Positions 3,401 to 60,100 of a stretch of DNA of 64,000 bases are shown here, piece by piece. Each line of letters starts with the position of its first letter. The stretch's first letter is position 1. Position numbers and translations under genes: made by a program. A model generated the notes under the pieces. It saw only the letters and a program-made list of their open reading frames with translations, was not told where the DNA came from and ran no database searches. This DNA comes from a virus, in the IMG/VR virus record IMGVR_UViG_3300045988_173642, positions 35,986 through 99,985 of that record, one strand, 5' to 3'.

Positions 3401-6003
3401 TTGGCTTCTTCGGCTTCCTCCTGAGCCAATTTCTCGGCATTCACAAGCGACATAATCACTTCAACGGCTGTCATCACCAAAGCAATGAAAGCCCCCAGTG
3501 CATTGGCCTTGAACGCATTGTTGAATGCAGTTTGCGCGGCAGTGGCTGCGTTCGTTTCGGTAATCCAGAGGCGAACAAAAAGAGTCACCTGTTTAATGGC
3601 AACACCCATATTGCGAAACAGCGTCACACCACCGATCAAAGCACGAGCAACCAAGAAATTAATCAAAGAAGGAAGTAGATACACCAACGCTTTGATGTTG
3701 CCAACCACCAACGACAAAGCTCCGCTCAAAGTGCCACGGAACAATGGACTATTAAGCATTTCGTTGGACATGTCATACCACACTTGTGCCAACTGCTTAA
3801 CCATTTCAACACCTTCTGTTGACACAAACGCCTTCTCCCAAAGGTTATTGGCGCGATCAAGGATGCCAACAGCACTCGTCTGCTGCATCTCGTATTCATT
3901 TGTCACCGCTGTCGCTTCCTCAAAAGCCGTTTCTGCCTCATAGAGATGGTCTTTCAGCAGGTCAACGTTTTTCGACATTGTAATCATCGTCGTTATCAAG
4001 CGCTGACCATCCGAACCAAGGTCCTTAAAGATGTCGCCCAGCACGCTCATGTTGCCCTTGTCGCGCATCTTTTCGAGAACCATCACCATTGCTTCCGCAG
4101 TTTTCCGCGATTCAAACATCTTGGAAATGATGCCCTGCTGCAAACCAAGGTCGGTTTCTATCTCTTTATGATTACGTTGCAGCGACACGATAAATTTAGA
4201 AATGGCCGTGGCGCTAACTTCTGGCATAAGGAACAGCGCATCTGAGGCCGAGCCAAGAGCCAACAATTGGTCGGCCGTGATGCCAGCCGTGCGCGAGACA
4301 CCTGTCAATCGTTTAGCAAATTCAACGATATTACCACTCGTCGCAGTACTCGTTGCCGACAATTTAAACATAGCTGAACCCGTTGCAAGCATTGCTTTTT
4401 CGATGCCCATCTTCGGAATCAGTCCCATTGTCTCCACTAGTTTTGCCAATGAAGGCAAAGACTTTTCACCCATCTCTTCACCGATGGCCACGTTGATTTG
4501 GTCGGCAGCACGCACGAAACCAGCCAAACCTTCTGAACCATATTTACCCATGCCGAGCTTCGCACCTTCATAAGCCAGTTTTGCCAAGCCCTCCATGTTG
4601 GTGCGAGTTTCGATTTTCGCCAACGATGCCGAAAGTTTGTCAATTTCTCCTGCCGTGAGACCGCTGACCTTTCGGATGTCGGTCAGTGAGCTGGAATACT
4701 CAAAGTTCTTCTTAATGGCCGACGTAATGACACCTTGCAACATACCGAACACCTGAAAGAGGCCGACGTATGCCGTCAAGTTTTTCAACGCCGTTGACCA
4801 AGCACCGCCCTGCTTTTTTGCCGAGCCCGTCACCTTGTCGATGTCGGCTTTAATTCGCTGCATGTTTTTCTGCGTCTCTACAAACTTCTTACTGCGGATG
4901 TTCACCTGCTTTAGTTTCTCTTCCAATTGCTTGTAAGCCTGGCGCAGTTCTTCGAGCGATGCTTTCCCGTTTTTGCTGCGGGCAATAATATCGTTGAGTT
5001 GCGTCTGCGTCAGTCGCGTGCCCTTCAACGTCTGCTCCAACATCGCATACTGCTTGCGAAGGGCAGCAACGGCATTAGAGCCTGCCGGCAATTGCTGAAT
5101 TTTCTGTGCAATCACCTCCATCGTACGCTTGATGTCCTCACCAGATGCCTTGTTAGGCTCAGACAATACCTGACGCATCTGTTTCCAGCTAATGGTGGCT
5201 TCACGTGCCTTGCCAGACACCGCCTCCAGGCGCTCTTCCACCTGCGCCAACAACTCGTTGTATTTTTGGATGGCTTGCGTATCAGTCACCGACGTGTTGT
5301 CACGCGCCGATGTCAGTGTGGTGCGGGCTCTTCTTAAATCGGAAGCGGTTGTGTCTGGCGCCCCAAGAGCGGCGGCAGACGCATCTGCCTCGCTCATCTT
5401 CCCCTTACGGCGGTCTTCTTCCGCCTCCAACTGCTTCAACGTGGAGAGGTTCGACTGATACGAAGTATCCGTTTTCTGCAGCGAACCGACAAGGTCGCGC
5501 TGCTGTTTGATGGCCTTGTCGAGCCATTGGTCGGACTGAACGTATATGTTTTTCAACCCTTCCTCAATTTTCACATACTGACCTTCAATAAGTCGAATCT
5601 CGTCGCCCACCTGCTTCATCTTCTTACGAATTTCCTCAGCACGCTTCAAGTCCGCTTCCGACCCTGTGAGTTTCGCCAATTCCGCCTTTCCAGAACCAAG
5701 GGCCCGACGGAGGTCGCGAAGTTTCGTGTTGGTCAAATCCTCCACCACCTCACTAAGCCGCTTCGTATCGTTGATGTTGTCGCGCTGCACCTGAGACAGC
5801 GCCTTCAACGTGCTCTCTGCTTTCTTGCAGGCCGCAGAGTTGGCCTCACCGGCCGCCGTCATCTTCTGTATATCGGCGGTGTATTTCTCGACGAGTCGGT
5901 CAATCTCCTCCAACACCTGCTTGGCGGTTGCGGCATTGGCGGTGATGACCACTTTTGCTAATTTTTCTGTTGCCATGTCTATATAATATTGTTTTTGAAT
6001 CAT
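415..6003 (-). CDS. phage tail tape measure protein (1862 aa)
   Basis: Very long ORF with large charged coiled-coil stretches. The central block GSAMFKLSATSTATSGNIVEFAKRLTGVSRTAGITADQLLALGSASDALF resembles the TP901-type tape-measure core and is followed by hydrophobic segments. Two small co-oriented ORFs precede it, as in tail modules. Confidence 0.85.
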   Translation of the reverse strand: MIQKQYYIDMATEKLAKVVITANAATAKQVLEEIDRLVEKYTADIQKMTAAGEANSAACKKAESTLKALSQVQRDNINDTKRLSEVVEDLTNTKLRDLRRALGSGKAELAKLTGSEADLKRAEEIRKKMKQVGDEIRLIEGQYVKIEEGLKNIYVQSDQWLDKAIKQQRDLVGSLQKTDTSYQSNLSTLKQLEAEEDRRKGKMSEADASAAALGAPDTTASDLRRARTTLTSARDNTSVTDTQAIQKYNELLAQVEERLEAVSGKAREATISWKQMRQVLSEPNKASGEDIKRTMEVIAQKIQQLPAGSNAVAALRKQYAMLEQTLKGTRLTQTQLNDIIARSKNGKASLEELRQAYKQLEEKLKQVNIRSKKFVETQKNMQRIKADIDKVTGSAKKQGGAWSTALKNLTAYVGLFQVFGMLQGVITSAIKKNFEYSSSLTDIRKVSGLTAGEIDKLSASLAKIETRTNMEGLAKLAYEGAKLGMGKYGSEGLAGFVRAADQINVAIGEEMGEKSLPSLAKLVETMGLIPKMGIEKAMLATGSAMFKLSATSTATSGNIVEFAKRLTGVSRTAGITADQLLALGSASDALFLMPEVSATAISKFIVSLQRNHKEIETDLGLQQGIISKMFESRKTAEAMVMVLEKMRDKGNMSVLGDIFKDLGSDGQRLITTMITMSKNVDLLKDHLYEAETAFEEATAVTNEYEMQQTSAVGILDRANNLWEKAFVSTEGVEMVKQLAQVWYDMSNEMLNSPLFRGTLSGALSLVVGNIKALVYLLPSLINFLVARALIGGVTLFRNMGVAIKQVTLFVRLWITETNAATAAQTAFNNAFKANALGAFIALVMTAVEVIMSLVNAEKLAQEEAEEAKRKANAWKSSLTDAAVEVEKLQDKLNHYKKRLDDANVSQENKQKLIRRINSEYRQYLTNLGIEIKTVDDLRKYYDKLSTSISQATYYRFKQKAVEEVGEERRRDKQGAAINLRRYLQKTPWFSVDSYDAIIDDIEDGKNVWDIYLGLVREAINSGKHPMSGKFIKGATSRKLEKGLNWKVGGDYNIVSYGPNGRIPGIITYGDTGLWRALNWYRNSGNRLVKSMSEIDAVFKPWIGNYEPPIDDLGTLSDGETEEEREKRLARERRERIKSRRDELKQAQADANALLDNVTNFFERQINVKLEEAIARGMDKEEQALYVAPLKAAENKALEQARLAIAGKANVWEALKQSLRKQMLEQEDAAGVNLSEELLESIMNNDVEALRKKIGKLSQELGIPLHSVMAEIFKKATKNAKDNLTLAAQQQQARQKEILSLDFTNAVKSGAYGAFNSFGFANLNELENQDDAAGRQAFNKRKDLILDMYEQARREIVKVLSIDVSSVKGRLSLIYLLFGDDADGFGNRIKQTLGDDTEAWKLFYERLIKYDEDYTAALKKNDQERKKLNEYRWNKSDENKQWTAAIDAKEETNKESARRYSFGANADIVLPWGQSKGTDPELELLKLKLNQAKEYYRFIEDHKGSDEDRMAAAARVAELNSSLMDAVAAKAKATAEAQIKWYKPIEQYGTALGEALTDESKSVKQATRDMINSFIDLTGEYVKQKLTQFVMTKLYNTLMAESEVELSATKKAQAIEDANTSVASASVGTAAGIAEGSAKTIGKLGWWGIPLIAVISAVLGGLLSMAKGALSSAFGGNKAADTNSNKFKVTSGMLTYDSGNVQELRPYVADTGEIFMAREDNARHGGVNLLTTPTATIINGQPSLVAENGPEIVIGRETTRAMMLNSPQLLKALVNFDRNYSGRSVRRVFDGGNVADSATQLSGVSLSDDLMASNVAANAALLQAANALLKRLSEPIPAKIDMFGHGNLYDSMNKATKFMKGKS

Positions 6004-8906: not shown

Positions 8907-10055
8907 ATGAACATAAACATTACGCTTCCAGAAGCCTTAGACCGCGCTTCGGAACGACTACGAAAGAAGATGCTCCACTCGGTGGAACTATTGCAAAAGG
9001 CAGAGAAAATTGCGCTTAGCTATGATACTGAGCAAGGTTATTATTTAGCCTTCAGCGGCGGCAAGGATTCGCAGGCGCTTTACCACATAGCGCAATTAGC
9101 AGGCGTGAAGTTCCGGGGACACATGAACCTCACGAGCGTTGACCCTCCGGAGGTGATACGTTTCGTTAAGCTAAACTATCCAGAAGTAGAACTTATCAAG
9201 CCCAAGAAATCCATCTTTCAAATTGCGATTGAACGGCAGTACCTTCCGACGATGAGAGCTCGTTGGTGTTGCGAAGAATACAAAGAGAAGGCAGGATCGG
9301 GCAAAGTGACGCTTATCGGCATCCGCAAAGCAGAGAGCGCACGGCGGGCGAAACGCAACGAGGTTGAAATCAGTAGTCGGAAATTCAGCGGCGACCTTGA
9401 AGCGCTGGAGGCCTACAGGCAGGAACAACGCGCAAAACGCGCACGGCTACAGTCAAAGAAAAAGGGCGTTAACATCACAAATGCCGACAAAGAAACAACC
9501 CTTGGTTGCATCCACGGCAAAGAGAGTTTGCTCATCTCGCCCATCATCCACTGGGCGGAACAAGATGTATGGGAATTTCTCAACGACGTGGTGAGCGTGT
9601 CACATTGCGCGCTATACGATGAAGGTTGGCACCGCATCGGCTGCATAGGTTGTCCGATGAGTTCGTACAAGCAGAAAACACTGGAAAACGAACGCTACCC
9701 ACACGTGAAACGCGGTTGGCTTCGGGCCATCAAAAGAATCCGTGATGTGGGGGGACTTCAAAAGAGAATATATCTGGTGGAACATCCGTTCGAACTGGAT
9801 GCCGATGCAAAACGTCGGCAGATTGCTCCGAACGCAGGCGGCTACATCAAGCATCCAGCCCCGGAACACAGGATGGGAAAAACGTTCGGGTTTTCATCTT
9901 GCTCATCTTCTGACCGCTTGAACGATGAGCAAGAAAACGAAATAGCGGAGAACATCTACGACTGGTGGATTTCGGGAAAATCATACAAACGATGGTATGC
10001 TGAGAAATTCCAACAGATGAAATTGGATTTTAAAGAGGAAACTAACAATGGCTAA
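8907..10055 (+). CDS. PAPS reductase / PP-loop ATP-pyrophosphatase family protein (IbrA/DndC-like)
   Basis: PP-loop motif YYLAFSGGKDSQALYH, a conserved cysteine segment RARWCCEEYKE, and C-terminal GCIGCPMSS. 382 aa. Confidence 0.8.
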   Translation: MNINITLPEALDRASERLRKKMLHSVELLQKAEKIALSYDTEQGYYLAFSGGKDSQALYHIAQLAGVKFRGHMNLTSVDPPEVIRFVKLNYPEVELIKPKKSIFQIAIERQYLPTMRARWCCEEYKEKAGSGKVTLIGIRKAESARRAKRNEVEISSRKFSGDLEALEAYRQEQRAKRARLQSKKKGVNITNADKETTLGCIHGKESLLISPIIHWAEQDVWEFLNDVVSVSHCALYDEGWHRIGCIGCPMSSYKQKTLENERYPHVKRGWLRAIKRIRDVGGLQKRIYLVEHPFELDADAKRRQIAPNAGGYIKHPAPEHRMGKTFGFSSCSSSDRLNDEQENEIAENIYDWWISGKSYKRWYAEKFQQMKLDFKEETNNG

Positions 10056-19077: not shown

Positions 19078-20265
19078 TTAGTCATCTATGACCATCGGCA
19101 TACACATGGTGAGCACTGACGGTGCAGGAATATCGGCCGTGAACAACATCTGATGTCTCTCATCCGAAAATTGCATGCGGATGTCTGGCGCATCGATGGC
19201 ACTCAGTGCTGAAGAAAGGTAAGATGAGTTGACGCCGATGCGGAATCCATCAAGACATTCGGCATTGGAGACCAGCACTTGGTCAGCAGCCGACGTAGAG
19301 AAGTCAACGTCGCGCGAAGAGACATCCAAGAACATACCGTTTTTCTCAAGCACAAGCAGGTTGCTCGACTTGTCGCCAAACAGACTAACGAGCTTGATGG
19401 TCTCCAGCATTTCGCGCTTGTTGAACACAACGTAATACGGATTGCCACGCGGAATGACGGAACCGTAATTCGGATATTTCGCCTCGCAAGTTTTACAAAT
19501 GTATTCCATCGACCCTGAAACGAACCTCAAAGAATGTGTGTCACATTCTATGTGAATTTCTTCACATCCGTCAAACACAGAGACGGCGCGGAAATAAAGT
19601 TGCGGAAGCAACATCCTGCTGGGCTGACCACCACGGAAGAAATCTCCACCGCCTGTTGCTGGATTGTTTGTGTAGTTGGTCTTAATAAGTCCGTGTCCAT
19701 CCGAGGCAACAAACACCACATCTGACAAATCTTCTGCCACATCGATGCAGATACAGTTCATCTGCGGCCGGATGATGTCTTTGGCTGTGAACGGAGCGGA
19801 ATTGTCCAACACCTTTGAGAAGAACGGAGACGGCAGGGTAATGCACGTCTTATCTTCCATCAAATCTGGCGAAATCGGGAAGTCCTTGCCATCGAAGTAA
19901 GCGAAATTGGCTTTGCCTTCTTTTACTTGCCCGCCGCTCTCCGTGCAATAGGAAAGTGAAACACTCTTGTTGCTGCCATCGAAATCGAAGGTCAGCGTGC
20001 AATCTGGAAGAGAGGAGATAAACGGCAGAATGGTCTTCACTGGCAACGCGATTGGGGAATCAAGATTGCCGTCGAAGATGGTCAAAGGGGCTGGCAGCGT
20101 TAACTGAGAACTACTTGTAGCGGCCACGAAGAAGAAGACTCCGTCGGCATGGCGAACGAGCAACACGTTATCCAGGATGGCCAACGAGTTTTTGGTGGAG
20201 ATGGCTTTGGAGGCTTTCTGCAAGACCTCTGCAAGCAGGCGTGAGGATTGAGCTTGTAATTTCAT
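19078..20265 (-). CDS. dnaN: DNA polymerase III beta sliding clamp homolog
   Basis: 395 aa. The N-terminus MKLQAQSSRLLAEVLQKASKAISTKNSLAILDNVLLV follows the DnaN pattern, the length fits a three-domain clamp, and it is embedded in replication genes. Confidence 0.75.
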   Translation of the reverse strand: MKLQAQSSRLLAEVLQKASKAISTKNSLAILDNVLLVRHADGVFFFVAATSSSQLTLPAPLTIFDGNLDSPIALPVKTILPFISSLPDCTLTFDFDGSNKSVSLSYCTESGGQVKEGKANFAYFDGKDFPISPDLMEDKTCITLPSPFFSKVLDNSAPFTAKDIIRPQMNCICIDVAEDLSDVVFVASDGHGLIKTNYTNNPATGGGDFFRGGQPSRMLLPQLYFRAVSVFDGCEEIHIECDTHSLRFVSGSMEYICKTCEAKYPNYGSVIPRGNPYYVVFNKREMLETIKLVSLFGDKSSNLLVLEKNGMFLDVSSRDVDFSTSAADQVLVSNAECLDGFRIGVNSSYLSSALSAIDAPDIRMQFSDERHQMLFTADIPAPSVLTMCMPMVIDD

Positions 20266-35745: not shown

Positions 35746-37443
35746 TCATCGCGTGCAGGCAAATCCACCTGCAATCAACGGGAACAAGAAGAAGGGCAAA
35801 CCAAACAACGACAAGGCCGCGGAGAGGGCAATAAATGCCAGCACCCAGGTCAGCAATTGACAGAGGATGTTTTTAGGCTTTAACCGCTCGCGCCTGGCCC
35901 TTTCCCGTTCTTCGCGTTCTTCGCGTTCAAATTCTGCGTCTCTCTTCTTAAAGTACTCCTCGTCGTCCACCATAATGTAATGGCGCTTTGGTTGACGTTT
36001 TTTAGGTACATCAAACATGGCTTTCAGCCGTTCTAATTCGGCCTCGTATTCTGGCGTGCCTTCTTGGTCGACGACGGCACGTTCAAGGGCGATAACTTGT
36101 TGTTCGTCTACGGCTTCATCCGCCGCAGGCGAATCCGTAGTTACCGCAGGCGCATCCGCCGTTATTTCAAGGGCGGTAACTTGTTCCGCCGTAGGCGCAT
36201 CTTCCATTATGGCAGGCGCATCCGCCACATTCTCCTGCACTTGTTCTGGCTTTTGAATCTCTGAGACGACCGATTCTTCCACCCTTCCATCTACACACAC
36301 AATCACGTCACCGTGCAGACTCACTTCAATCTGGCATCCAGGACTCAATCTCTTCGACATAAAAGAGCGTTCACTGCCGCAGTTGGCATGGGCAAAACGG
36401 TGCCCATTCATTTCCACTTCGTCAAAGTCGGCCACATAAGTGACCTTACCCGTCTTTTCGCCAATGGTGGTATGATACCAACGGTAAATGGTTACGGCCT
36501 TGTGTATCGGGCGAAATTTAAACGCGCAGTTGAATTTCGCATCATGATTTGTGCAGCCAATGCGGTCATAAACCGCGTAATCATCAAACTTAAATACCAG
36601 TCCATCGGTCGGCCACGGCAACTCGGCACGGCGCGTTTCGGCTTCACACACAATTTGCTCCACCGCCTGCTCCAACTCTGCCATGTTGCCATTGAAATGA
36701 AAACCATCCACCATGCCTGAAATCAAGAACCCAAGGCGCTCCAGTTCACGCATCGCATCGCATTGTGTAGAGTAAGCGTCCGACAGCAAGCGGAAAGGGT
36801 GGAACTCCAACAGGCGACAATCGGCAGCCACGGCTATTTTCTTTGACATGATGCCGTTGCTCGTCACGCGCGGTGATTTCCCAGCCTTGCTATAACGAGA
36901 GAAGGTGTCAAGAGAAATGATCACCTCCCCGCGTACCTCCGTGCGAGGTGTGTCGCGCCAGGCTTCCACATATCCAGGCACGCCCTGCACGTGGCGAATG
37001 TGCGCCAAACAGTCGTTGCCCATCAACTCTTTTCCGTGGCCGTAGGTAGCTTCAGCAAGATGCCCATTAATATATACAAGTGCCACCGTTTCGCCGTCAA
37101 ATTTCCATTCGACATCGATAAAGACATCTTCAAGACGTGCAGCCGTCTGCTGCGCTTTAAGGTATTTCACCATGTCTGCCGCGGTATGCACTTTCTTCAT
37201 AGATAGGCAGGGCGTGCGGCGTGCCACGGTGCGTTTCCCGTTCCCGTTCTCGCTATAGCACGTCTGCGTCGGCGAATCGGCCAACACGTCCTCCGGGTGC
37301 TTGTCCTCATATTCCTGCAAGGCAAAATAAAGCGCATCATACGCTTCGTCGCTGATTTCCGGCGCATTCAGCGTAAAATATAGGTAATCGTGCTTTTTAA
37401 CCTGGTCAACGGCAGCACAATAGTCTTTCTGTGTCTCAATCAT
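35746..37443 (-). CDS. NAD-dependent DNA ligase (LigA)-like adenylation+OB core fused to an acidic repeat region and a C-terminal membrane anchor
   Basis: HDYLYFTLNAPEISDEAYDALYFALQEYEDKHPE..DSPTQ, KxDG motif VEWKFDGETVAL, EVRGEV, DGLVFKFDD and AFKF are present. There is no Zn-finger, HhH or BRCT. The tail has ADAPA-type repeats, a basic EREEREERERARRERLK stretch, then LTWVLAFIALSAALSLFGLPFFLFPLIAGGF. Confidence 0.7.
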   Translation of the reverse strand: MIETQKDYCAAVDQVKKHDYLYFTLNAPEISDEAYDALYFALQEYEDKHPEDVLADSPTQTCYSENGNGKRTVARRTPCLSMKKVHTAADMVKYLKAQQTAARLEDVFIDVEWKFDGETVALVYINGHLAEATYGHGKELMGNDCLAHIRHVQGVPGYVEAWRDTPRTEVRGEVIISLDTFSRYSKAGKSPRVTSNGIMSKKIAVAADCRLLEFHPFRLLSDAYSTQCDAMRELERLGFLISGMVDGFHFNGNMAELEQAVEQIVCEAETRRAELPWPTDGLVFKFDDYAVYDRIGCTNHDAKFNCAFKFRPIHKAVTIYRWYHTTIGEKTGKVTYVADFDEVEMNGHRFAHANCGSERSFMSKRLSPGCQIEVSLHGDVIVCVDGRVEESVVSEIQKPEQVQENVADAPAIMEDAPTAEQVTALEITADAPAVTTDSPAADEAVDEQQVIALERAVVDQEGTPEYEAELERLKAMFDVPKKRQPKRHYIMVDDEEYFKKRDAEFEREEREERERARRERLKPKNILCQLLTWVLAFIALSAALSLFGLPFFLFPLIAGGFACTR

Positions 37444-50209: not shown

Positions 50210-53200
50210 TTAGATTTGCAATTGGAAATCGTAAGAGGCTCCATCGTCTTTCTGCTTCCACGTGAGTTTTCCAGTCTTGTCTTGTCGGCCAGAGGTGAAG
50301 TGATAGAGGCGTTCAAAATAGGCGACATAGTCGGGCGTTGTGCCCATGTCTGGCGTGATGATGGTGGTGTCAGTGGGGTGTACCCCATTGTTGACGGCTG
50401 CATACCATCCGTCTGGAATCAATTCGCCCGTCGGCAAGTCTTGCGCCAGTTGGGCGTTTTGGTAATAAAGACCAAGCTGCTCAGGCGGCGTGTTGGAACT
50501 CGTGCCGCCATACCAATAGACCACGGCGGTGTCGGTCTTCGTCTGTTTTGGGAAAAACTGATAATAGGGTAGGGCATCTGGGTTGCCAATGTAAGCCACG
50601 GCCAACCAAACGTCATAGGCATTGTTGACGCTGATGATTTTCAAGCGCGAGATGGGAAAATAGGCCGCAGTGGTGGTGATTTTGTCAAGGCCGTTGGGGC
50701 CGAGATTATACATCTTCTGTCCGTCTTTACTGTAGAACTCCAAGATAGCACAACCGTCGGCATCTACGCCCACTTTGATATTTGGGAAAGCCAACGAGCC
50801 AAACATCTCTACCACGCCATCATGCACCTCTACGTGGCTGTCGTTGCCGTCAATGCGCATATTGCCGTTGATGACGCTGAATTTATTGCCCGACCAGATG
50901 TCGCCCTGGCGATTGACGCGCATAACGGCATCGGCAGGTGTTGCCCCACCAAACCAAAGCGGATATTCCATGTCTGTGCCGCCGCCAAAAGCACCGTAGG
51001 GCGTGCCGTTTTCGTCAGTGATCTGAATTTGACTGACCTGCAAGAATTGGATAAAGGCCGTCATGATGTCGGCGAAGGAGGTGCGCAGGGGGCGCAGGTC
51101 ATTGATAGGTTCCCAGAAGTCGTTGCCCGTTCCAAAAGGTTTATTCGCTGACTCAGACAGGATGCCATTGTGCGAAGGGCGGGCGAGATACCATTTCGGC
51201 GTGCCGCTCTTGAGGTCAGTCACACTGACTTCGTCGAGATAGCGGTTGCCGTCGGGGGCCGTGGTGTCGCCACTATCGTTGCGATAGAGCACGCCCGCTT
51301 CCCATTCTCCGCGACGCACTGTCACGCCAGTATATCCGCGTGGGCCTGGGGCACCAGGGGCGCCAGTGTCGCCCTTCGCGCCGTTTTGCCCGTCTTCGCC
51401 TTCGCGGTTTTGCGCGATGGTGGCGGTGGCGGTGGCGGTGCCGTAGTCCGTGACAAGCGTGAAGGTCATGAAAGCATCCTCAGGCGTTGCGCCGTCCACT
51501 TCCACGCCCACGAAGCCTTTCAGCGTGACGTGGTAGGTCAGGCTCTTACCATCGGCGGCAACAACGGCCGTGTACGTCAGTTCAACAGGCGTGGTGGCGT
51601 CGCCCGTTCCATAAGTGGCCTTTCCGCTACGCACATCGAGCGGCTGCGTGCCGGAAAACACTTGTGCCGTGATGTCGAAAGAGATGTCATCGGGGGCGGC
51701 CGTATCGTACCAGTCCGAGATGGCCACACTGATGATGTTCTTATTCAGCACAACGGTCAAGGCCGTGGGGTCGGCAGCATGGAAGGCCACGTTGCTCACG
51801 CCATAGGTACCATCGGAATAAGTGTAGAGCCATTGTTGCCACACCACGCGATTGGAAGGCGAAGGCGTCAGCGGTTCTGTCTGCCATTCGCCTTTGACGT
51901 AGGAGAGGTGGTCTTCAGCAACGCGGATGCCGTCGGGCAGGATTTCCACGGCAGGTGTGGAGAGGAAATAGAGCTGCTGCGTCACGATGGAGGGAACGCG
52001 GTCGAACTGGTCGACCATGCCCCACATATAGATGTTGCCCGTGGCTATACCTTCGCCCTCCAGTTCTTTGAGCGCTTCGACAAACTCCTTCTTCTCTTTG
52101 TCCCAAACACGCTGCAACATTGTGAAGCCGTTGAGCCAGCCGATGATGAGCTGCATGTTGTCTTGCGTGTACGTCCAATTGGTCATGCCGGCCAAGTGCA
52201 GCTGATAAGTCGTCGTGGTCAAGCAAGAGCGTTGGCGCGTGCTGTCGGTCTCATTGGCATAGCAGGCAAAGTGCATCGCTGGCTGCGGATGTGATTCATC
52301 CGTCCATCGGTTGCGGTCTTCCGCAGGGAGGTCGGCACAGGTGGCGGCACGCAGTTCATAGCGGAAGAACTGGTTGAGGGCTGGCGTGCCATCCGCTGCC
52401 GTCTGCTCCTTAATTGGGGCAGGCAACGTGGCTGGCGTATAAATTTCTTTTACGCGAAAATAGATGGTCGTGAAGCCTGCGAAATGGAAGTTGCCATCGT
52501 GAGGGTCAGAGGTGGAGAGGTCGTTGCGGCGGTTGGTGAAATGAAACACACCCTGGCATTTGTCGTTGACGGCCACGGCACCCACTTCCCCCGTTTCCAA
52601 TTTCAATTGCACCACGCCTTCGAGCGAAGTAAATCCGAGCGCGGAGAGCGCTTCATCGGCACCCGTCCACACCTGCTGGATGATACCGCCGCCCTGCGTC
52701 TGCCATTTATTCCCAACTGTGATGGTCGTGCGGTTGAAACGCAGTTCGGGCACCTCCAGGAATGACCTTGCAACGATGCCTTCAAATTCAGCATTGCCGT
52801 AGAAGTCGACCTTCGCGCCTTCAACGCCTTTGTTGAACGTACCGACCGTCAAATCGCCATGCAACGTTGTCGGTCGTCGTTTCTCTGGCGTTCCAACCGT
52901 CAGAGCGCCCTCCACGAGTGCATCCCCGTGGATGACCGTGTTGCCGAAGATGTCGGCCGCGCCGTTGACCTTCAGGTCGTGCATGGCGAGGTTGAAGGGC
53001 GTTTCGTCGTCGTGGCGCTTCGAGAGCGCATTGTCGTCCATGAGCTTCGGCGTGACGATTTTCGTGGCATCGTCTAAGGGGGTGTCGGCATCCCCGATGC
53101 CCGTTATCTCGCCCTGCTGTCCTTCAAACGTGATGCGGCCGCCGGAAACAATCTTCAGCGTGCTAACGAAGAGGTCGCGGAACACCGTGCCTGCCTTCAT

Positions 53201-53737
53201 CGTGAGGTCTTTGAGGAACGTCAAAGTTTGGTCGAAAACATCATAGCGATACCAGTCTGTTTCTGCTGGCCCCGCGTTGATGGCTTCATCCGAAGAAAGG
53301 TAGCCCGACACGATGCGCTGCCGCCAGACGCGCTTCTCTGTGCCGTTTTCGCCAGAGGAGGAGAGAATGCCTTGCAGGAAGATATAGTAATACTCCTCTG
53401 AGCCTATTTGCTGCTCTTCGGCGTTCCGTCCGTAGATGTCAATTTCCTCAGAGGGGAACACGATGTTAGCAGCGTTGCCAACGGATTCTGTGCGCGGAAT
53501 GGCGGCATAGACATATTTTTCTGTGTGTGTGTTGAACACTGTCGGAGAGGCTTGCAGTCGCCAGCGGCGGTAATTATGCCCGGCATCATAGTCGATGATG
53601 CCTTTGACGTACACAAGAATTTGCGCATTACCGACACACGAGGCCTGCACGTAGTCGGGCATGGCCAGGGCGTTGCGTTCGATGAAGAGCGCGTCGGGCG
53701 AAATCCAATAATCTGTGGTCGTTGCTTTCGTTGTCAT
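50210..53737 (-). CDS. tail fibre protein with a short collagen-like segment (1175 aa)
   Basis: Gly-X-Y run GEDGQNGAKGDTGAPGAPGPRGYTG (51326-51400) in a large beta-rich ORF in the fibre module. The upstream 99-aa ORF overlaps it by 4 nt. Confidence 0.6.
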   Translation of the reverse strand: MTTKATTTDYWISPDALFIERNALAMPDYVQASCVGNAQILVYVKGIIDYDAGHNYRRWRLQASPTVFNTHTEKYVYAAIPRTESVGNAANIVFPSEEIDIYGRNAEEQQIGSEEYYYIFLQGILSSSGENGTEKRVWRQRIVSGYLSSDEAINAGPAETDWYRYDVFDQTLTFLKDLTMKAGTVFRDLFVSTLKIVSGGRITFEGQQGEITGIGDADTPLDDATKIVTPKLMDDNALSKRHDDETPFNLAMHDLKVNGAADIFGNTVIHGDALVEGALTVGTPEKRRPTTLHGDLTVGTFNKGVEGAKVDFYGNAEFEGIVARSFLEVPELRFNRTTITVGNKWQTQGGGIIQQVWTGADEALSALGFTSLEGVVQLKLETGEVGAVAVNDKCQGVFHFTNRRNDLSTSDPHDGNFHFAGFTTIYFRVKEIYTPATLPAPIKEQTAADGTPALNQFFRYELRAATCADLPAEDRNRWTDESHPQPAMHFACYANETDSTRQRSCLTTTTYQLHLAGMTNWTYTQDNMQLIIGWLNGFTMLQRVWDKEKKEFVEALKELEGEGIATGNIYMWGMVDQFDRVPSIVTQQLYFLSTPAVEILPDGIRVAEDHLSYVKGEWQTEPLTPSPSNRVVWQQWLYTYSDGTYGVSNVAFHAADPTALTVVLNKNIISVAISDWYDTAAPDDISFDITAQVFSGTQPLDVRSGKATYGTGDATTPVELTYTAVVAADGKSLTYHVTLKGFVGVEVDGATPEDAFMTFTLVTDYGTATATATIAQNREGEDGQNGAKGDTGAPGAPGPRGYTGVTVRRGEWEAGVLYRNDSGDTTAPDGNRYLDEVSVTDLKSGTPKWYLARPSHNGILSESANKPFGTGNDFWEPINDLRPLRTSFADIMTAFIQFLQVSQIQITDENGTPYGAFGGGTDMEYPLWFGGATPADAVMRVNRQGDIWSGNKFSVINGNMRIDGNDSHVEVHDGVVEMFGSLAFPNIKVGVDADGCAILEFYSKDGQKMYNLGPNGLDKITTTAAYFPISRLKIISVNNAYDVWLAVAYIGNPDALPYYQFFPKQTKTDTAVVYWYGGTSSNTPPEQLGLYYQNAQLAQDLPTGELIPDGWYAAVNNGVHPTDTTIITPDMGTTPDYVAYFERLYHFTSGRQDKTGKLTWKQKDDGASYDFQLQI

Positions 53738-54033
53738 GAATGCTTGGAGATTTTAAGAATGAGACGCGAAAACGGCACCATCATGAGATAGGCCCAAGAA
53801 AGGCGGCTGGGATATTGAAGATCGGCATCCGCCGTGTGTGAGCGCAAGATGTGAAGGCGATAGAGCGCGTTGTGGGCCAGCCATTCCGCTTTCAGCGAGC
53901 GCAGACTGCGCTTCCAAACATTAGAATTAGGAAAGAGCGAGCGCACGTAACGCAATTTGTTGTCCATTTCCGCTTCGCTGTACTTATAGGATTGATGAAT
54001 GTGGAGATTGTTGTCAGTGATGGTGTAAATCAT
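53734..54033 (-). CDS. hypothetical protein
   Basis: 99-aa ORF, translationally coupled (ATGA) to the fibre gene. Confidence 0.55.
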   Translation of the reverse strand: MIYTITDNNLHIHQSYKYSEAEMDNKLRYVRSLFPNSNVWKRSLRSLKAEWLAHNALYRLHILRSHTADADLQYPSRLSWAYLMMVPFSRLILKISKHS

Positions 54034-54053: not shown

Positions 54054-54104
54054 GATAAAAAAACGTTCTACTTTTGTCTGTTGTCAGAACAAAGGTAGAA
54101 CGTT
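54054..54104 (-). terminator. rho-independent terminator closing the DGR accessory operon
   Basis: Stem aaacgttctac (54061-54071) pairs with gtagaacgttt (54095-54105), abutting the stop at 54105. On the minus strand it is followed by a T7 run. Confidence 0.65.
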
Positions 54105-54626
54105 TTAAGGTTTTTCATCGGACATTCCCATGTGTCGCGACAAAGAAAGGTGGTGCTGGAGGATGCGGATGTTATGGCGCAAATCGTCGAGCGTGGCGTG
54201 CTCTACGTCAATCATTGACACCAACACACAAACGTCATGCTCCGCTTCGGTGCGTGAATGATGGGCGTCTTGAGCGGGCGTGGGGGAAGGAGGAGAGGGG
54301 AGTGGTTGCACTGATGTTCCAGTCTGTTCCGCCAGTTCTTCCGACAACGCAAGCACATAATGTTTACCAGAATCATCCGTGCTGATTTCCACTTCCGGAT
54401 GCGCCTTCTTCAATCGTCGCAAAACGCCATCAATGGCGGAGCAGGGGATGCCAAGCTGATGAACAGTGTGTCCAGCAAGCGGAACGGCGCGGATGCGGTA
54501 GCCTGTGATGTTCTGCATGAACGCAGCGCAGGCGTTGAAAGCATGGAAAAACAATCCTTGCTGAATGAGATAGAGCCTGCGGCCATCCGTCTGTTCCTGC
54601 TCCGCAATGGCTTCAGCCACTTTCAT
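54105..54626 (-). CDS. MutS-domain-I-like small protein (candidate DGR accessory factor, MSL-type)
   Basis: RRLYLIQQGLFFHAFNACAAFMQNITGYRIRAVPLAGHTVHQLGIPCSAIDGVLRRL parallels E. coli MutS [32 protein letters not shown]...PMAGIPYHAVENYLAKL. The mismatch-binding F-x-E is FFH here. It overlaps the upstream ORF by 4 nt. Confidence 0.4.
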   Translation of the reverse strand: MKVAEAIAEQEQTDGRRLYLIQQGLFFHAFNACAAFMQNITGYRIRAVPLAGHTVHQLGIPCSAIDGVLRRLKKAHPEVEISTDDSGKHYVLALSEELAEQTGTSVQPLPSPPSPTPAQDAHHSRTEAEHDVCVLVSMIDVEHATLDDLRHNIRILQHHLSLSRHMGMSDEKP

Positions 54627-55081
54627 GCCTCTTCTATCTTGAAGGCCGGTTTGGCCAATGCCTTGCAGCGTTCGGCAAAGGCTGTCACTTGCTCCAGGTC
54701 GGTTGTGTCACCAAGCAATGCCTTGCGGTGAGCGCACAACTCTTCTGCATAAGAATATCGAGCGCCAATGAGATAAGCGGCCAAGGTATGATAATCTGAG
54801 ATGCGGTACACGGCCACAAGTTCTTTGATGAATGCCGCGTCAAGACTGTCAAATAAGCCCTGCTGATAAATGGTCTGCAGCAATGTCTGTGCCGTCATTC
54901 GTCCTTCATGCGAAATGGCCAGTGTGGTGCAACGAACGCGCTGCTCTCCTGCATCATTCTTATAAGATGAAGGGGAGAGGTTGATGGTCAAGAACTCCGT
55001 GTTCTTGGAATAAGAGCGAACGATGTGGCGGGGATTTTCCGTCAAATCTTCGCATTGGCGAAGGGGAATTTTTTCTCTCAT
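54623..55081 (-). CDS. hypothetical protein in the DGR operon
   Basis: 152-aa ORF, coupled by 4-nt overlaps to the RT upstream and the MutS-like ORF downstream. Confidence 0.6.
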   Translation of the reverse strand: MREKIPLRQCEDLTENPRHIVRSYSKNTEFLTINLSPSSYKNDAGEQRVRCTTLAISHEGRMTAQTLLQTIYQQGLFDSLDAAFIKELVAVYRISDYHTLAAYLIGARYSYAEELCAHRKALLGDTTDLEQVTAFAERCKALAKPAFKIEEA

Positions 55082-56553
55082 AAAATAGATGTTTGAATCA
55101 TTTTACATTTGTTTCGCAAACGAATCCGCTCAAAATGGCCATGAATGTAAAAGAACTCGTAGAAGACATGTTCAAAAATAGATAGTGTCGTTTTACGTAA
55201 GAGGTAAGACCTTTTATTCTTGAAAAAACCGAGGTACGAGTTGATGACTTGTTCCATGCGACGAAGGTCGCACAAGGATATAATGGATTTTTCGCGCAAC
55301 ATTTGGTTGAATCCAAAAACGCGCTCACGGAAACGAGCAACGGTGCGGCTGGACAGGTATATACGATAGTAACGGATGTAGGCTCCAACAAACATAACAC
55401 CATGTGAAGCTAATTGAAAATGATATTTGGTGACGTGAAGCGTAATACCAAGTTCAGACGACAGAAACAAGCGAGCGTCAATGATGAAGGCTTTTAAAGC
55501 AGACTTGCTGATGCAAATGACAACAAAATCATCTACAAAACGCGTGTAGTAGACCTCAAATCCACGGAGTTTGAACCATTGAATTACGAAATCATCAAAG
55601 AATGACATAAGGAAATTCACGAACACTTGCGTTGTGATATTCCCAATTGGCATTCCGAAGGCAACATCGCTGCCGAAAAGCGACTTATGGCGCTCAATAT
55701 GCTTGTGCCATTCATCTGGCGATGTGTTGAACACACAATTTTGCTCGGGACAATGAAACACGATGGTTTTGGATGCGGCGAACAATTGTTTCAAGTATTG
55801 GCCTTTGTATTGTTCGCGGATGAACGGTTCCAGTTTTGACCATAATATACGCTTGTCTATCGACATGAAGAACGAGACGATGTCGCCCTTAAACACCCAT
55901 GCAGGGCGGCTATAATTGCAAGTTGCCTTCTTGATGTTGTCATATACGGCCTTCTGAGCCGCAAGGGTGCCAAATCCTTTTCGGCAATTGAATGACACAT
56001 TACCTTGTTCAATAAAACGCCGCTCAAAATACGGATTGAGAAAAAGAATAATGAAATGATGAACGATGCGATCGCGAAAGCAAGCCGCAAAAACCTCTCT
56101 ATATTTCGGGTATTTCACAAGGAAACACGTGCTGACGCCTGGCTTATATGCTCCAGTATATAATTCATGTGCCAATGCTGGCAAATCATGTTCGGCTATC
56201 TCGCAATAGTCGATACATGCACGGCTGGTGCGTTTACGCTGGCAACAATCGTCAAAAGCAAAAAGCACAAGATCAAGAAAGTCGGTAGGAATATCAAAAG
56301 CGACGACAGGACGAACCACAAACCCGTTGTACTTATTGTTGTTGTTGATGTTGCCATTGCCGAAGTTGCTGTTCCAACTGTTGTTGCGGTTATACTCCGT
56401 GGCGCTCCATCGGTTGGCCTGAACGTTTACTTTGGGCATTGAAATAGCATAACCACTCCAGACATTTTCATACGAACCATTGCCGTATGAACATAAATCT
56501 AAATAGGTATGCCCACCTTTTAACAGTCCTCTCGGCTCTCTGTCACAATTCAT
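55078..56553 (-). CDS. DGR-type reverse transcriptase
   Basis: Motifs FRDRIVHH, VSFNCRKGFGT, GDIVSFFMSID, GMPIGNITTQVFVNFLMSFFDD (the DGR hallmark I/LGNxxSQ region) and YTRFVDDFVVI (YxDD). The ATG-started ORF runs through the TR; the RT body begins near residue 90. No ATG lies between the TR and the RT body, but an in-frame GTG is at 56268. Confidence 0.9.
   Translation of the reverse strand: MNCDREPRGLLKGGHTYLDLCSYGNGSYENVWSGYAISMPKVNVQANRWSATEYNRNNSWNSNFGNGNINNNNKYNGFVVRPVVAFDIPTDFLDLVLFAFDDCCQRKRTSRACIDYCEIAEHDLPALAHELYTGAYKPGVSTCFLVKYPKYREVFAACFRDRIVHHFIILFLNPYFERRFIEQGNVSFNCRKGFGTLAAQKAVYDNIKKATCNYSRPAWVFKGDIVSFFMSIDKRILWSKLEPFIREQYKGQYLKQLFAASKTIVFHCPEQNCVFNTSPDEWHKHIERHKSLFGSDVAFGMPIGNITTQVFVNFLMSFFDDFVIQWFKLRGFEVYYTRFVDDFVVICISKSALKAFIIDARLFLSSELGITLHVTKYHFQLASHGVMFVGAYIRYYRIYLSSRTVARFRERVFGFNQMLREKSIISLCDLRRMEQVINSYLGFFKNKRSYLLRKTTLSIFEHVFYEFFYIHGHFERIRLRNKCKMIQTSIL
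56296..56422 (-). repeat. DGR template repeat (TR), 127 bp
   Basis: Matches 57194-57320 at 114 of 127 positions. All 13 mismatches are plus-strand T in the TR, which is A on the coding strand. Read in frame it is rich in AAY codons (NRNNSWNSNFGNGNINNNNKYNG). Confidence 0.93.
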
Positions 56554-56577: not shown

Positions 56578-57039
56578 TTAAGCACTTACAGAATTACTAC
56601 CTTGCGAAAATCTGACCAGAGAAGATGCGCGCCATGCTGAAACCTGTAAGGAACAGGAAGCGACGAGCGACTTAATCTTCTTAAAATCATCATTACTGAT
56701 GCAGCCCAATGTCTTCATGATGCAAATAATAGATTTAATAGCATCTATATGAGCTGCAGCAATAGTCAGCTGCGGCACTCGTGAATACATATCAGCAAAT
56801 GCAATAGACAAACTCACCAATAAACCCGCGCATTCTGAATACATCGGATTGACCACAGGACGATATTTGACTGGACACGTCTTGTTGATTTGCGCCAAGA
56901 CGAGATACAATTGCTGAGAATCGCGAAACACCTGCTGCTGATGGATGGTCCGAACTTTCTCTTTCTTGAGCTTTTTACTTCTTTCTTTTTGTTCTGTTGT
57001 TATTTGTATATATTGTGGTTCTTTGTTGTCATTTACCAT
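56578..57039 (-). CDS. avd: accessory variability determinant (Avd)-like four-helix-bundle protein
   Basis: 153 aa between the target and the TR, with a basic N-terminus (KERSKKLKKEK). The helical body with FRDSQQLYLVLAQINKTCPVKYR...LSIAFADMYSR...IDAIKSIICIMKTLGCISNDDF fits the Avd / four-helix-bundle family pattern. Confidence 0.6.
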   Translation of the reverse strand: MVNDNKEPQYIQITTEQKERSKKLKKEKVRTIHQQQVFRDSQQLYLVLAQINKTCPVKYRPVVNPMYSECAGLLVSLSIAFADMYSRVPQLTIAAAHIDAIKSIICIMKTLGCISNDDFKKIKSLVASCSLQVSAWRASSLVRFSQGSNSVSA

Positions 57040-57178: not shown

Positions 57179-60100
57179 TTAAAGGATGAAGGGAAAAGCG
57201 ACGACAGGACGAACCACAAACCCGCTGTACTTATAGCTGTTGTAGACGTTGCCATCGCCGAAGTAGCTGCGCCAACTGTAGTAGCGGTCATACTCCGTGG
57301 CGCTCCATCGGTGGGCCTGACGAGGATTGCGCACCGGACAGCCCAGATTGGCGTCTTTCGCGCGTTTCTGCAAGTTTGCATAGAAAGGGCGGCGAGCATC
57401 CGTCGGCTCATGCGGTCGCAGTTCGTTGCCTTCGTCGGAAAAATCCGCCGTTGGCGTACCAGTGTCAGATGGCGTCAGCGCACGGCTATTGCGGAAGAAA
57501 ATATACAGACGGAACATATCACCGCTGCCATGCAGATACCATTTCCCTTTTTCAAACCACGGCGAAAGGCCGTCAATGGGCTTGCCGCCATTGCTCGGCT
57601 CGAACAGGGAACAAGCGTAGGCGGCAGGATAGGCTAACTGACGCCATCGTTTGTCGCCGCCGATATTTCCAAGCGCCACGCAGAGATCGGCCAGCTCTTC
57701 CATCGTTTCTGGAATGATATGGTCGCGTACTGCGGGAAGGTAGTCGAAGATGGTGTGACCATCGCTATCTGTCAACAGTCCTTCCCCGACATATTGTGTC
57801 AGAATACGATTGGCATGTGCCACGATTGAGGCGGTGTCCTTTTTGCCATCCCATCTGTTGGGCGCAGTATTACCTTCATAGACCTTGAATCCGTCACTTT
57901 CGTTATCATCATAAGCCTGCAAGTCTTTGATGTAATACGTTTTTTCGCCTTTTTCGTCCACCATACCAACATCTGTACAATCATTACAAGCGGGGATATT
58001 CGTCAAATCGTCATCAGAGACGGATAATGCTTCAGCAATCACCTTGCGTTCGTCGGGTGTAAATCCCAATTCACCAGTGCCTTGCGGATAAATACCCCAT
58101 GAAAACTCACTGATGGAGTTAGCCTTATCTGAGGACGTAATGGTCAGTTCTTCCACGTTTTCGATCAACACTTCATACAGTGTTTTGCCCGAATTATATT
58201 GCGCCGAGATTTCTTCATCCTGCAAATATTCGTTCAAAAGATTCGTTGGTAGGTCGGCATAAGGCGTCACCTTATATACCCAGCCAATAACCTTTTTACC
58301 CGGATATAACACGGAATCAAACTCACCATTATAGTAAGCGAAATCGCCTAATTTCGGAATGCGGTTGAAAAGTTTCAACACCACTGATGTGCTAAGCGAT
58401 TTTCCTCCAATCAAGGTAGCTGTAACAGTCAACGTCGCAGTTGGGTTATTACTTTCCTCGCCGACCGATGGCGCATGCAACACGCCAGTCTCTGCATCCA
58501 CCGTCACATTAAAATCATTCTCAGAGATAGACCACCTTAAATCCGTGAAGTTGTTGGCCATCGTTGGCAACACGGAACATTGGTAAGGATAATCTCCTGG
58601 TTCGGCAATAACAAAGCGTTGCGTAATGATATTCAAGCCTGTCACGCTGCGCAAAGAATAAGTGATATACAAATCATTATTCTCAGAGTCGATTTCGCCG
58701 AACTTGCGCAACAAGGCGAGTTTCAATTCTGCATCCACATTCTGCCCTTCTGTCACGGCAATTCGTCCATACAAAGAGCAATATAGAATCCCAGTTATAT
58801 AGAATAATACGCTTGGCGCAACATCTGTCCAATCAATTCCATCTATGCGCAACGTGCTCAACTTTGCGCCAGCCTCACTACATCCACGCACCAAAGAGCG
58901 CGTGTCAAAACCGCAATTGAGGGCGGTGATCGAAGTTAAACGAGCGTAGCCATCCAGCGTGAGCGTCTGTAACTGCGGCATATCGCGCACTTCAAGTTGT
59001 GAGAGCTCCGCACCGAAGCGAGCCACGGTAAGTTGTGGTGAGGACGGCATACGCACCTGCCCGTATTTCGTTCCGCGAAGGTCGAGTGTTTGCAGTCGTG
59101 AAGCCTTAGAGAGGTTGAATGTTCCGCTGGATGTGCTAACACCATTCAGAGACAGACGCTGCAAATTGGCGGCATCTACATCTATCTGCTTCGGCGCAAA
59201 CGCACTGCTACCTGCTTTAGGCTCAGCAATAAACTCCGTCATTCGGCGTCCCTGAATGGTGAAGTTATTATTGCCAACCACCATGTTACCCACGTTACCG
59301 ATGGAACGATAATAGTTAGTGGCAGCAAGTCCGACTGATGAGTCGCCAGGAATCGGTGTGGAAGCAGGATTTACTGTGAAGGCATAGTGTCGCCCCGGTA
59401 TCATGCGGAAATGCGGGTTGATGAGCGCACGGTCGCGCACGCCACAGGGATAGAGGTACTGATGAGGAACAAGGTCAAATGTGTATTCGCCTCCCGTGCG
59501 CCCAGAACCAGGCGTGAACTGCAAACCAGCGCTGGCGTCCACCAATCCAGTAGAACCAGTGTTCACACCACTTGAGAAGTCACCCCATGCCGCATACGAA
59601 CAGACAAGAGCCAGTCGGCGTGTCATATACTGAATCTCGCTCTCCAACTGGTCGCCAATGCCCTGCGTGACGGCGAGAATACCACGCGCCTGGTTGCCGT
59701 AACTCTCATAGCCCCACGATGCGGGCCAGTCGTATCGGATGCGCTGCTGTTCCGCCCATGCTACCTCGGCAAAGTACTTTTGAACTGAGAAGAAATACTT
59801 GTGTATACAACCGTATGGCGTTTGGCGTTGTGTCGTTGTAAGGCCGTCTATATTCTCATTCGCCCCAACCAACGTACACATGGCCGTCAACACTTCACGC
59901 ATATTGGCCGGCAATGCCGTTTGGTCGAGCGTTTCCCATGCCGCCTCCATGACATTGAACAAAGCCGATGCCGTGCCTTCATAGTCCTTCTGCTTTTTCA
60001 GTCCGTCCTTCGTGTCTTGAACGTCGAAATAACGAGAAAGGAAATACACCTTTGTCTGTCGTCCGTTGTTGTCAGTCTTAAAGATGGTATCAAGGTCATC

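Follow-up and report, generated by a model that had tools for sequence, protein, structure and literature searches.

MutS-like (MSL) proteins are an accessory class of diversity-generating retroelements (DGRs) surveyed by Wu et al. 2018 (NAR 46:11, PMC5758913), who recorded them in 16 of 372 DGRs and assigned them to architecture D. The published members are 112-283 aa in length with a pI of 7.2 +/- 1.7, are always accompanied by avd and never by HRDC, and include examples from Legionella; Phyre2 returned strong to moderate indications of MutS homology for 11 of the 16 proteins, and three are listed as MutS homologs in GenBank (PMC5758913). The interplay of DGRs with mismatch repair has been studied in the Bacteroides element Bov, where deletion of mutS increased mutagenesis of the variable repeat (VR) 5-10-fold, repair appeared to be all-or-nothing and host MutS reverted 80-90% of retrohoming events; Msl is credited to the Bfr, Bth and Bun elements only, not to Bov, and Mfa-type (Type V) pilus targets are the setting of the Msl-bearing Bacteroides DGRs (bioRxiv 10.1101/2024.11.15.621889). 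Here we analysed a 64,000-nt stretch of viral DNA (hereafter the window; positions 35,986 to 99,985 of IMG/VR record IMGVR_UViG_3300045988_173642), which contains a complete and apparently active DGR whose last gene specifies a 173-aa protein. Using the published class criteria, as well as HMMER relatives that reside in Bfr/Bth-like cassettes, we assign this protein to the MSL family as a divergent, phage-borne new member.

All of the cassette genes lie on the minus strand, in the order target gene (with the VR), Avd-like gene, template repeat (TR) and reverse transcriptase (RT), a 152-aa open reading frame (ORF), MSL gene and terminator (Table 1; coordinates here and below are positions of the window). 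There are 13 differences between the TR and VR, every one of them at an adenine of the TR, and because of this we regard the DGR as apparently active. The ORFs of 152 aa (hereafter ORF152) and 173 aa that a first-pass annotation of the sequence had called are both present on this strand, as is the translational coupling to the RT that it had proposed: one ATGA (55078-55081) is common to the RT stop and the ORF152 start, and a second (54623-54626) to the ORF152 stop and the start of the 173-aa ORF. The terminator said to close this unit was likewise recovered, as a hairpin that begins at the MSL stop codon and has a 20-bp interrupted stem followed by U7 (-21.8 kcal/mol, z = -4.46; none of 200 shuffles was as good). 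A simple terminator scan missed it because the inner loop is long, and detected nothing above chance inside the Avd-RT-ORF152-MSL unit. When compared with three related phage contigs, ORF152 and the 173-aa ORF gave dN/dS values of 0.14-0.27, indicating purifying selection and hence that both are real genes.

The first-pass annotation had also proposed that the 173-aa protein corresponds to the mismatch-recognition domain I of MutS, and this match is significant at the level of the family. On its own, the window protein aligned with Pfam MutS_I (PF01624) over residues 16-82 with E = 0.14 and 12.8 bits (cut-off 20.6), single-sequence searches of PHROGs, NCBIfam and the PDB sequences returned nothing relevant, and a word-indexed protein search found only relatives that were at least 82% identical. 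Using an exhaustive HMMER search, we identified 43 relatives, with identities down to ~20-25%. When scanned individually, 38 of the 45 family members matched MutS_I (best E = 9e-7), and many of the members recovered in a second search were already annotated with PF01624. The top PDB sequence match of the family profile was Taq MutS residues 30-91 (HMMER, E = 0.0095), whilst hhalign paired residues 17-82 of the window protein with E. coli MutS 27-93 (E = 2.9e-4), setting F26 against F36, H28 against E38 and G59-I60-P61 against G70-I71-P72. Thus, the pairing that had initially been made by eye (GLFFHAF with GDFYELF and LGIPCSA with AGIPYHA) was reproduced by profile methods (hhalign and HMMER).

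Structure prediction pointed in the same direction. With an alignment of 45 sequences, the AlphaFold2 (AF2) model of the protein reached a mean pLDDT of 86.9, with 94-98 over residues 1-100; a shallow alignment of eight sequences gave a pLDDT of 38, and the deeper alignment was needed for a confident model. In a Foldseek search of the PDB with this model, the first 22 matches were all MutS with a probability of 1.00 (best 1ewq_B, E = 3.3e-4), comprising the Taq and E. coli proteins, the 5x9w/5yk4 'Mismatch Repair Protein' entries and human MutS-beta. The top three viral matches were MutS-like N-terminal-domain proteins, and two small viral proteins, from a Klosneuvirus (A0A1V0SJ64, 135 aa, E = 4e-4) and from Siphoviridae sp. 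ctZro7 (A0A8S5PPT8, 153 aa, E = 4e-3), possess the same fold. The AF2 architecture consists of the domain I fold (residues 1-100), a Pro/Ser-rich linker of low confidence (101-125) and a C-terminal helix-loop-helix. No Pfam match to MutS_II-MutS_V was found in the window protein or in the family scan, and the remainder of MutS, reported as missing in the first reading, is indeed absent from these 173 aa. The protein is therefore a domain-I homolog and not a MutS, without the connector, clamp and ATPase domains (II-V) and also without the regions through which E. coli MutS binds MutL.

Compared with MutS domain I (PF01624; Taq 1EWQ and E. coli 1E3M), the MSL protein has the same fold, an alignable GxF...GIP core and a preserved mismatch-stacking Phe, with F26 taking the place of Taq F39 and E. 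coli F36. It differs at the Glu of the Phe-x-Glu motif, the replacement of which had been noticed at the outset: H28 occupies this position in the window protein, and His is found there family-wide. Among the 152 family members with a locatable motif, the stacking Phe is kept in 148, and the Glu position is filled by His in 130 (86%), Arg in 11, Leu in five, Asn in three, Gln in two and Thr in one, and never by Glu or Asp. Because His predominates to this extent and an acidic residue does not occur at all, the alignments identify Phe-x-His as a signature of the family and not a sporadic loss of Glu. E. coli MutS E38 mutants retain DNA binding, but do not authorise repair; solved structures of the E38A, E38T and E38Q mutants are among the Foldseek matches of the MSL model.

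In every respect in which the MSL class has been defined, the window protein agrees with it, and because of this we consider it a member: its length (173 aa) and pI (5.97) lie inside the published ranges, it is homologous to the MutS domain that recognises mismatches, and it resides within a DGR cassette (RT, TR/VR and target) that has avd and no HRDC gene, with no HRDC match among the five cassette ORFs scanned using Pfam. As the first-pass annotation states, such genes do feature in DGR surveys (Wu et al. 2018, PMC5758913). HMMER additionally links the protein to Prevotella/Bacteroidaceae proteins encoded in cassettes with the arrangement pilin-type target, MSL, TR, Avd and RT. It is, however, only 25-37% identical to these bacterial members and alone falls short of the Pfam MutS_I threshold; it is carried by a large phage, downstream of the RT and ORF152, whereas the bacterial MSL gene sits between the target and Avd; and the 'ACESPxG' extension seen at the C-terminus of the bacterial subfamily is missing from it. 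The DGR of crAssphage LMMB (PMC7290462) was considered as a counterpart and rejected, as it is of a different type (lineage 3) and has no avd.

We next turn to the genomic context of MSL homologs, for which locus searches were performed with sub-alignments of the family rather than with the full family alignment (L numbers denote individual loci). The nearest relatives of the window are IMG/VR viral contigs of 74-101 kb, related sequences exist in Bacteroidales and Paludibacteraceae metagenome-assembled genomes (MAGs), and INPHARED contained no megablast or tblastn counterpart; the source is an uncultivated large phage (~93-101 kb) of Bacteroidales. The expected enrichment of homologs next to DGR RTs was borne out in both settings in which they occur. 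All seven distinct phage-type loci with an MSL homolog have the order Avd-RT-ORF152-MSL (L001, L002 and L016-L020; L042-L044 and L048 are the same loci as L017-L020). A larger MSL subfamily is present in Prevotella/Bacteroidaceae genomes, where a DGR RT lies next to the MSL gene in 11 of 24 distinct loci and two more end in Avd at the contig edge. In most bacterial-type loci without an RT, the MSL gene adjoins Avd, a TR or a VR-type target: in L010 it is flanked by the VR and TR with no RT; in L007, L022, L025 and L036 it follows ~100 nt after a gene with a typical variable CLec C-terminus (...YWSSxEY...VRPVLAF); and in L023, L038 and L040 DNA resembling the 3' end of a VR is found just upstream. 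The typical complete arrangement, seen in L013, is Mfa-type pilin target (with the VR), MSL, TR, Avd and RT.

Several further features of the bacterial loci were apparent. The MSL gene lies ~100 nt after the target VR and in some cases lies between the VR and TR (L007/L021, L022, L025 and L036; L010-L012; L013), 'orphan' copies adjoin VR-type targets with no RT within the flanks, and in several MAGs there are two or three MSL loci. The association of MSL with the target and its VR thus seems at least as close as that with the RT. One relative, P0066 (348 aa), is a fusion with HisKA and HATPase_c, i.e. a histidine kinase with an N-terminal MSL domain I, and separate HATPase_c genes are found in Prevotella-type DGR loci, either just downstream of the RT (L013, 8659-9522) or a few kb downstream of MSL in a locus without a detected RT (L010, 9049-9639). 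In many of the Prevotella/Bacteroidaceae MSLs, the helix-loop-helix is followed at the extreme C-terminus by a conserved 'ACESPxGxxE' peptide, which could be a short docking motif and is missing from the phage subfamily of the window.

Within the cassette clade itself MSL is optional. Several loci (L003, L005, L045-L047 and L053) contain Avd-RT-ORF152 with RTs that are 59-65% identical, but no MSL gene; in these, a 94-aa ORF and a tail-fibre-like gene directly follow ORF152. The absence of MSL from such equivalent cassettes speaks for a modulatory role and against an essential one; MSL would be an optional booster and not part of the core machinery. In related ~90-kb phages we also observed a deletion scar (L050, 5327-6258; also L049 and L051), in which only a fragment of the 2232-aa target gene precedes the C-terminal half of ORF152, with the tail-fibre-like gene coming next. 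In L050 and L051 a joint loss of Avd, the RT, the first half of ORF152 and most of the target gene has occurred through this deletion, and the 6-kb flanks of L050 contained no detected MSL.

ORF152 is a more constant partner of the RT than MSL. In all intact cassettes that were found (L001-L006, L016-L020, L045-L047 and L053), a homolog, 36-96% identical, immediately follows the RT and in most cases overlaps it by 4 nt; the dN/dS of ORF152 was 0.16-0.26. No informative match was obtained in Pfam, PHROGs, NCBIfam or the PDB sequences, and by hhalign it is unrelated to MSL (probability 3%) or to Avd (0.1%). Matches to its C-terminal ~55 residues (DYxxLxxxLIxxRY[ST]xxEELxxHRK...FxExCKxxAKxxF) were obtained, with 29 and 21 bits, from small ORFs overlapping the RT ends in L052/L054 and L058, loci on unrelated phage contigs of 20-37 kb with RTs only 30-32% identical. 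The same order of RT and small ORF was recognized by homology to the remote small ORF in L055 (37-kb contig) and L056 (28-kb contig); matches of L059-L061 to the ORF117 query were rejected as short and spurious. From these alignments, ORF152 may credibly be put forward as a candidate further family of DGR accessory proteins, found behind the RT in two divergent phage lineages, and it may equal a PAG candidate of Wu et al. 2018. Compared by description, it differs from the CH1 proteins of the same survey, which have a pI of 4.7 and occur only in DGRs without avd (PMC5758913), whereas ORF152 is less acidic (pI 6.4) and is found where avd is present.

The C-terminal region of MSL may represent a second link to MutS. 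The AF2 tail helices span residues 127-138 and 146-170 and form a helix-loop-helix in the same register as the MutS C-terminal domain (CTD), and the tail motif of the family, approximately FNLSxSTPMDAMNFIxxLQ, resembles the extreme C-terminus (tetramerisation domain) of E. coli MutS. With the E. coli CTD (801-853; 2OK2 and 3ZLJ chain C), the MSL family appears to share a helix, a 'TP' loop and a helix at the very end of the protein. In the relative P0033, which is 34% identical to the window protein, the tail gives a gap-free alignment with MutS 820-853 (Smith-Waterman score 64, z = 10), which none of 200 shuffles equalled. The sole PDB match of this tail is the MutS CTD (3zlj chain C), albeit weak (E = 0.14), and the sole NCBIfam match of P0033 covers positions 807-839 of the 840-position TIGR01070 mutS1, again weakly (E = 0.044). 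A profile of 92 tails from which P0033 had been left out scored 19.4 in hhalign against the E. coli CTD alone (P = 3e-4; shuffles 8.2 +/- 2.1, maximum 15.0, with 0 of 100 as good), and along the full 853-aa E. coli MutS its best match was 826-850. The link to the MutS CTD thus comes from hhalign and this single relative, and the likeness is suggestive; an architecture with both ends of MutS, domain I and a C-terminal oligomerisation motif, is likely by a narrow measure, but unproven.

How might a protein of this kind assist a DGR? Annealing of the cDNA apparently takes place at the replication fork, in the manner of a recombineering oligonucleotide, and the yield of oligonucleotide recombineering is raised by MutL(E32K) or by mutS deletion. 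Dominant-negative MutL has been added to engineered DGR systems in order to raise yield, and MutS-like homologs were cited there merely as a hint that mismatch repair matters (10.64898/2026.07.21.739853). We suggest that, when adenine-mutagenised cDNA pairs with the VR, the Phe wedge of MSL would occupy the dense mismatches; as MSL lacks an ATPase and carries His in place of the 'repair-authorising' Glu, repair would not be licensed. Host MutS would in this way be prevented from restoring the parental sequence in the heteroduplex, and a larger number of mutagenised VRs would be fixed, with the C-terminal hairpin probably serving either to oligomerise MSL for avidity or to dock on host MutS. 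MutL(E32K) and mutS deletion offer a functional analogy only, in that a mismatched annealed strand is fixed, and there is no homology; these are engineered global mutators, whereas MSL would be natural and encoded by the element. That MSL shields the cDNA/VR heteroduplex from host mismatch repair, as the first-pass annotation had suggested, is the reading that we favour, although we see nearly as much against it as for it. A more extended version, in which MSL is a 'mini-MutS' that keeps both MutS ends and acts as a local, element-encoded inhibitor of mismatch repair (by mismatch occupancy or by co-oligomerisation with host MutS), and ORF152 is in addition an undescribed RT-coupled accessory family in at least two phage lineages, is rather doubtful as a whole.

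A number of observations weigh against this reading. The window protein by itself remains below the Pfam threshold, and its homology is carried by family-level and structural evidence. With regard to the tail, E. coli MutS gave no match to a HMMER profile of 93 tails, a profile from the tails of a six-sequence subfamily matched FlgI and TFIIS-like motifs and not MutS, ten individual tails gave no MutS match in NCBIfam, and the window protein has Leu (TL) where its relatives keep the Pro of the 'TP' motif. We found no published binding, interaction or genetic test of any MSL. DNA binding by MutS involves the clamp domain IV as well as domain I, and an isolated domain I may bind DNA too weakly to compete with MutS. 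Finally, the mild acidity of MSL (pI 6.0) is not what is usually seen in proteins that bind DNA on their own.

Among other explanations, MSL could act earlier in retrohoming, as a nucleic-acid-binding subunit unrelated to mismatch repair that recognises the TR-RNA/cDNA hybrid mispaired at template adenines, or the VR-proximal hairpin or initiation of mutagenic homing (IMH) region, and helps to prime or target the cDNA. Such a role would fit the position of the bacterial MSL gene immediately after the VR and often between VR and TR (L013 and L010), the 'orphan' MSLs behind VR-type targets without a nearby RT, and the translational coupling of the phage MSL to the RT and ORF152. A core component should not, however, be missing from equivalent Avd-RT-ORF152 cassettes with RTs 59-65% identical, nor be confined to 16 of 372 DGRs (PMC5758913); moreover, it is precisely the mismatch-stacking Phe that is kept, which points to mispaired duplex DNA. 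We consider this explanation unlikely, although not negligible. Alternatively, MSL might redirect mismatch repair instead of blocking it, by marking the heteroduplex and recruiting host MutS, MutL or the sliding clamp through its C-terminal hairpin, such that the parental strand is excised and the cDNA fixed. A tail resembling the MutS CTD would be well suited to dock on host MutS, the capacity for hydrogen bonding is retained with His in place of Glu, and the phage encodes a clamp-like processivity factor of its own; in disagreement with this, host MutS was purely inhibitory in the one DGR tested (bioRxiv 10.1101/2024.11.15.621889), MSL is without any MutS region known to bind MutL, and the tail similarity is merely suggestive. 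Redirection is accordingly quite improbable.

It could also be argued that MSL lies beside the DGR by chance, being either a phage factor that generally counteracts mismatch repair or promotes recombination, or a fragment of mutS in decay. Its optional presence among related phages would agree with this; yet homologs track DGR parts in two unrelated settings (phage tail-fibre cassettes and bacterial Mfa-type pilus operons), dN/dS of ~0.2 signals purifying selection, the motif signature is conserved throughout the family, and in L050, which through one deletion has lost Avd, the RT, half of ORF152 and most of the target gene, no MSL is found in the 6-kb flanks. The probability of a chance neighbour is, as such, very low.

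Table 1. Features of the DGR cassette and its MSL gene in the 64,000-nt window
Feature	Coordinates	Strand	Basis or remarks
MSL (MutS-like) accessory gene, 173 aa, pI 6.0 (5.97)	54105..54626	-	Profile and structure matches to MutS domain I
MSL residues 1-100, MutS domain I fold	54327..54626	-	AF2 pLDDT 94-98 per block; Foldseek aligns 70-98 columns
Codons F26-F27-H28, equivalent of the MutS Phe-x-Glu mismatch-binding motif	54543..54551	-	Profile alignments
MSL residues 127-170, helix-loop-helix, possibly related to the MutS C-terminal oligomerisation domain	54117..54248	-	AF2 and tail profile
ORF152, 152 aa, pI 6.4, candidate DGR accessory gene	54623..55081	-	ATGA overlap with RT
DGR RT ORF, 491 aa (longest ORF)	55078..56553	-	Pfam RVT_1 3.5e-12; PHROG 1423 8.5e-60
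TR	56296..56422	-	38 adenines; in frame within 5' part of RT ORF
Avd-like accessory gene, 153 aa, pI 9.6	56578..57039	-	PHROG 3206 'Avd protein of DGR' E = 1.4e-4; Pfam bAvd E = 0.016
DGR target gene, 2232 aa	57179..63877	-	VR at 3' end; C-terminal variable CLec-type end (...RWSATEYDRYYSWRSYFGDGNVYNSYKYSGFVVRPVVAF)
VR	57194..57320	-	127-nt direct repeat of TR, 90% identical
GC-rich perfect 6-bp hairpin, GTAA loop	57115..57130	-	~50 nt downstream of target stop; terminator-like site in scan
Intrinsic-terminator-like hairpin and U-tract closing the Avd-RT-ORF152-MSL unit	54057..54106	-	RNA fold

Some of the remaining cassette features deserve comment. The target is probably a phage tail or receptor-binding protein, and the TR-encoded copy of its variable segment has a weak Pfam Lcl_C match (E = 0.005). 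Since the TR is in frame, the first ~95 residues of the longest RT ORF (56296-56553, minus strand) copy the variable C-terminus of the target (RWSATEYNRNN...VVRPVVAF), and an in-frame GTG just after the TR may be the real RT start. A TR inside the RT ORF is also found in the distant cassette L052 (4428-6071). The GC-rich hairpin beyond the target stop resembles the VR-proximal hairpin of DGR target recognition and could be that element.

Elsewhere in the window we observed genes for a 1862-aa tape-measure protein (415-6003), a PAPS-reductase-like protein (8907-10055), the clamp-like DNA polymerase processivity factor (19078-20265) and an NAD-dependent DNA ligase (35746-37443). Downstream of the terminator (50210-54033, minus strand), a 99-aa ORF is coupled by ATGA to a 1175-aa protein with a collagen-like G-X-Y stretch, and in related phages the two genes likewise follow the DGR, both in the presence and in the absence of MSL.

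Beyond what has been described for MSL genes, the observations added here are the likeness of the tail to the MutS oligomerisation motif, which is suggestive, the optional presence of MSL within a cassette clade, and the occurrence of ORF152 after DGR RTs in two divergent lineages. Of the steps of DGR retrohoming, the one by which mutagenised cDNA becomes fixed in the target gene is understood least, and MSL is the obvious candidate for an element-encoded countermeasure to host MutS. The present locus and the analysis of its family provide concrete handles on this step, namely the Phe-x-His signature, a possible MutS-type tail, natural pairs of cassettes with and without MSL, and a second RT-coupled, unannotated gene. 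If MSL does indeed block repair locally, it would constitute a compact natural tool that raises the yield of DGR- or oligonucleotide-based diversification without a whole-cell mutator.

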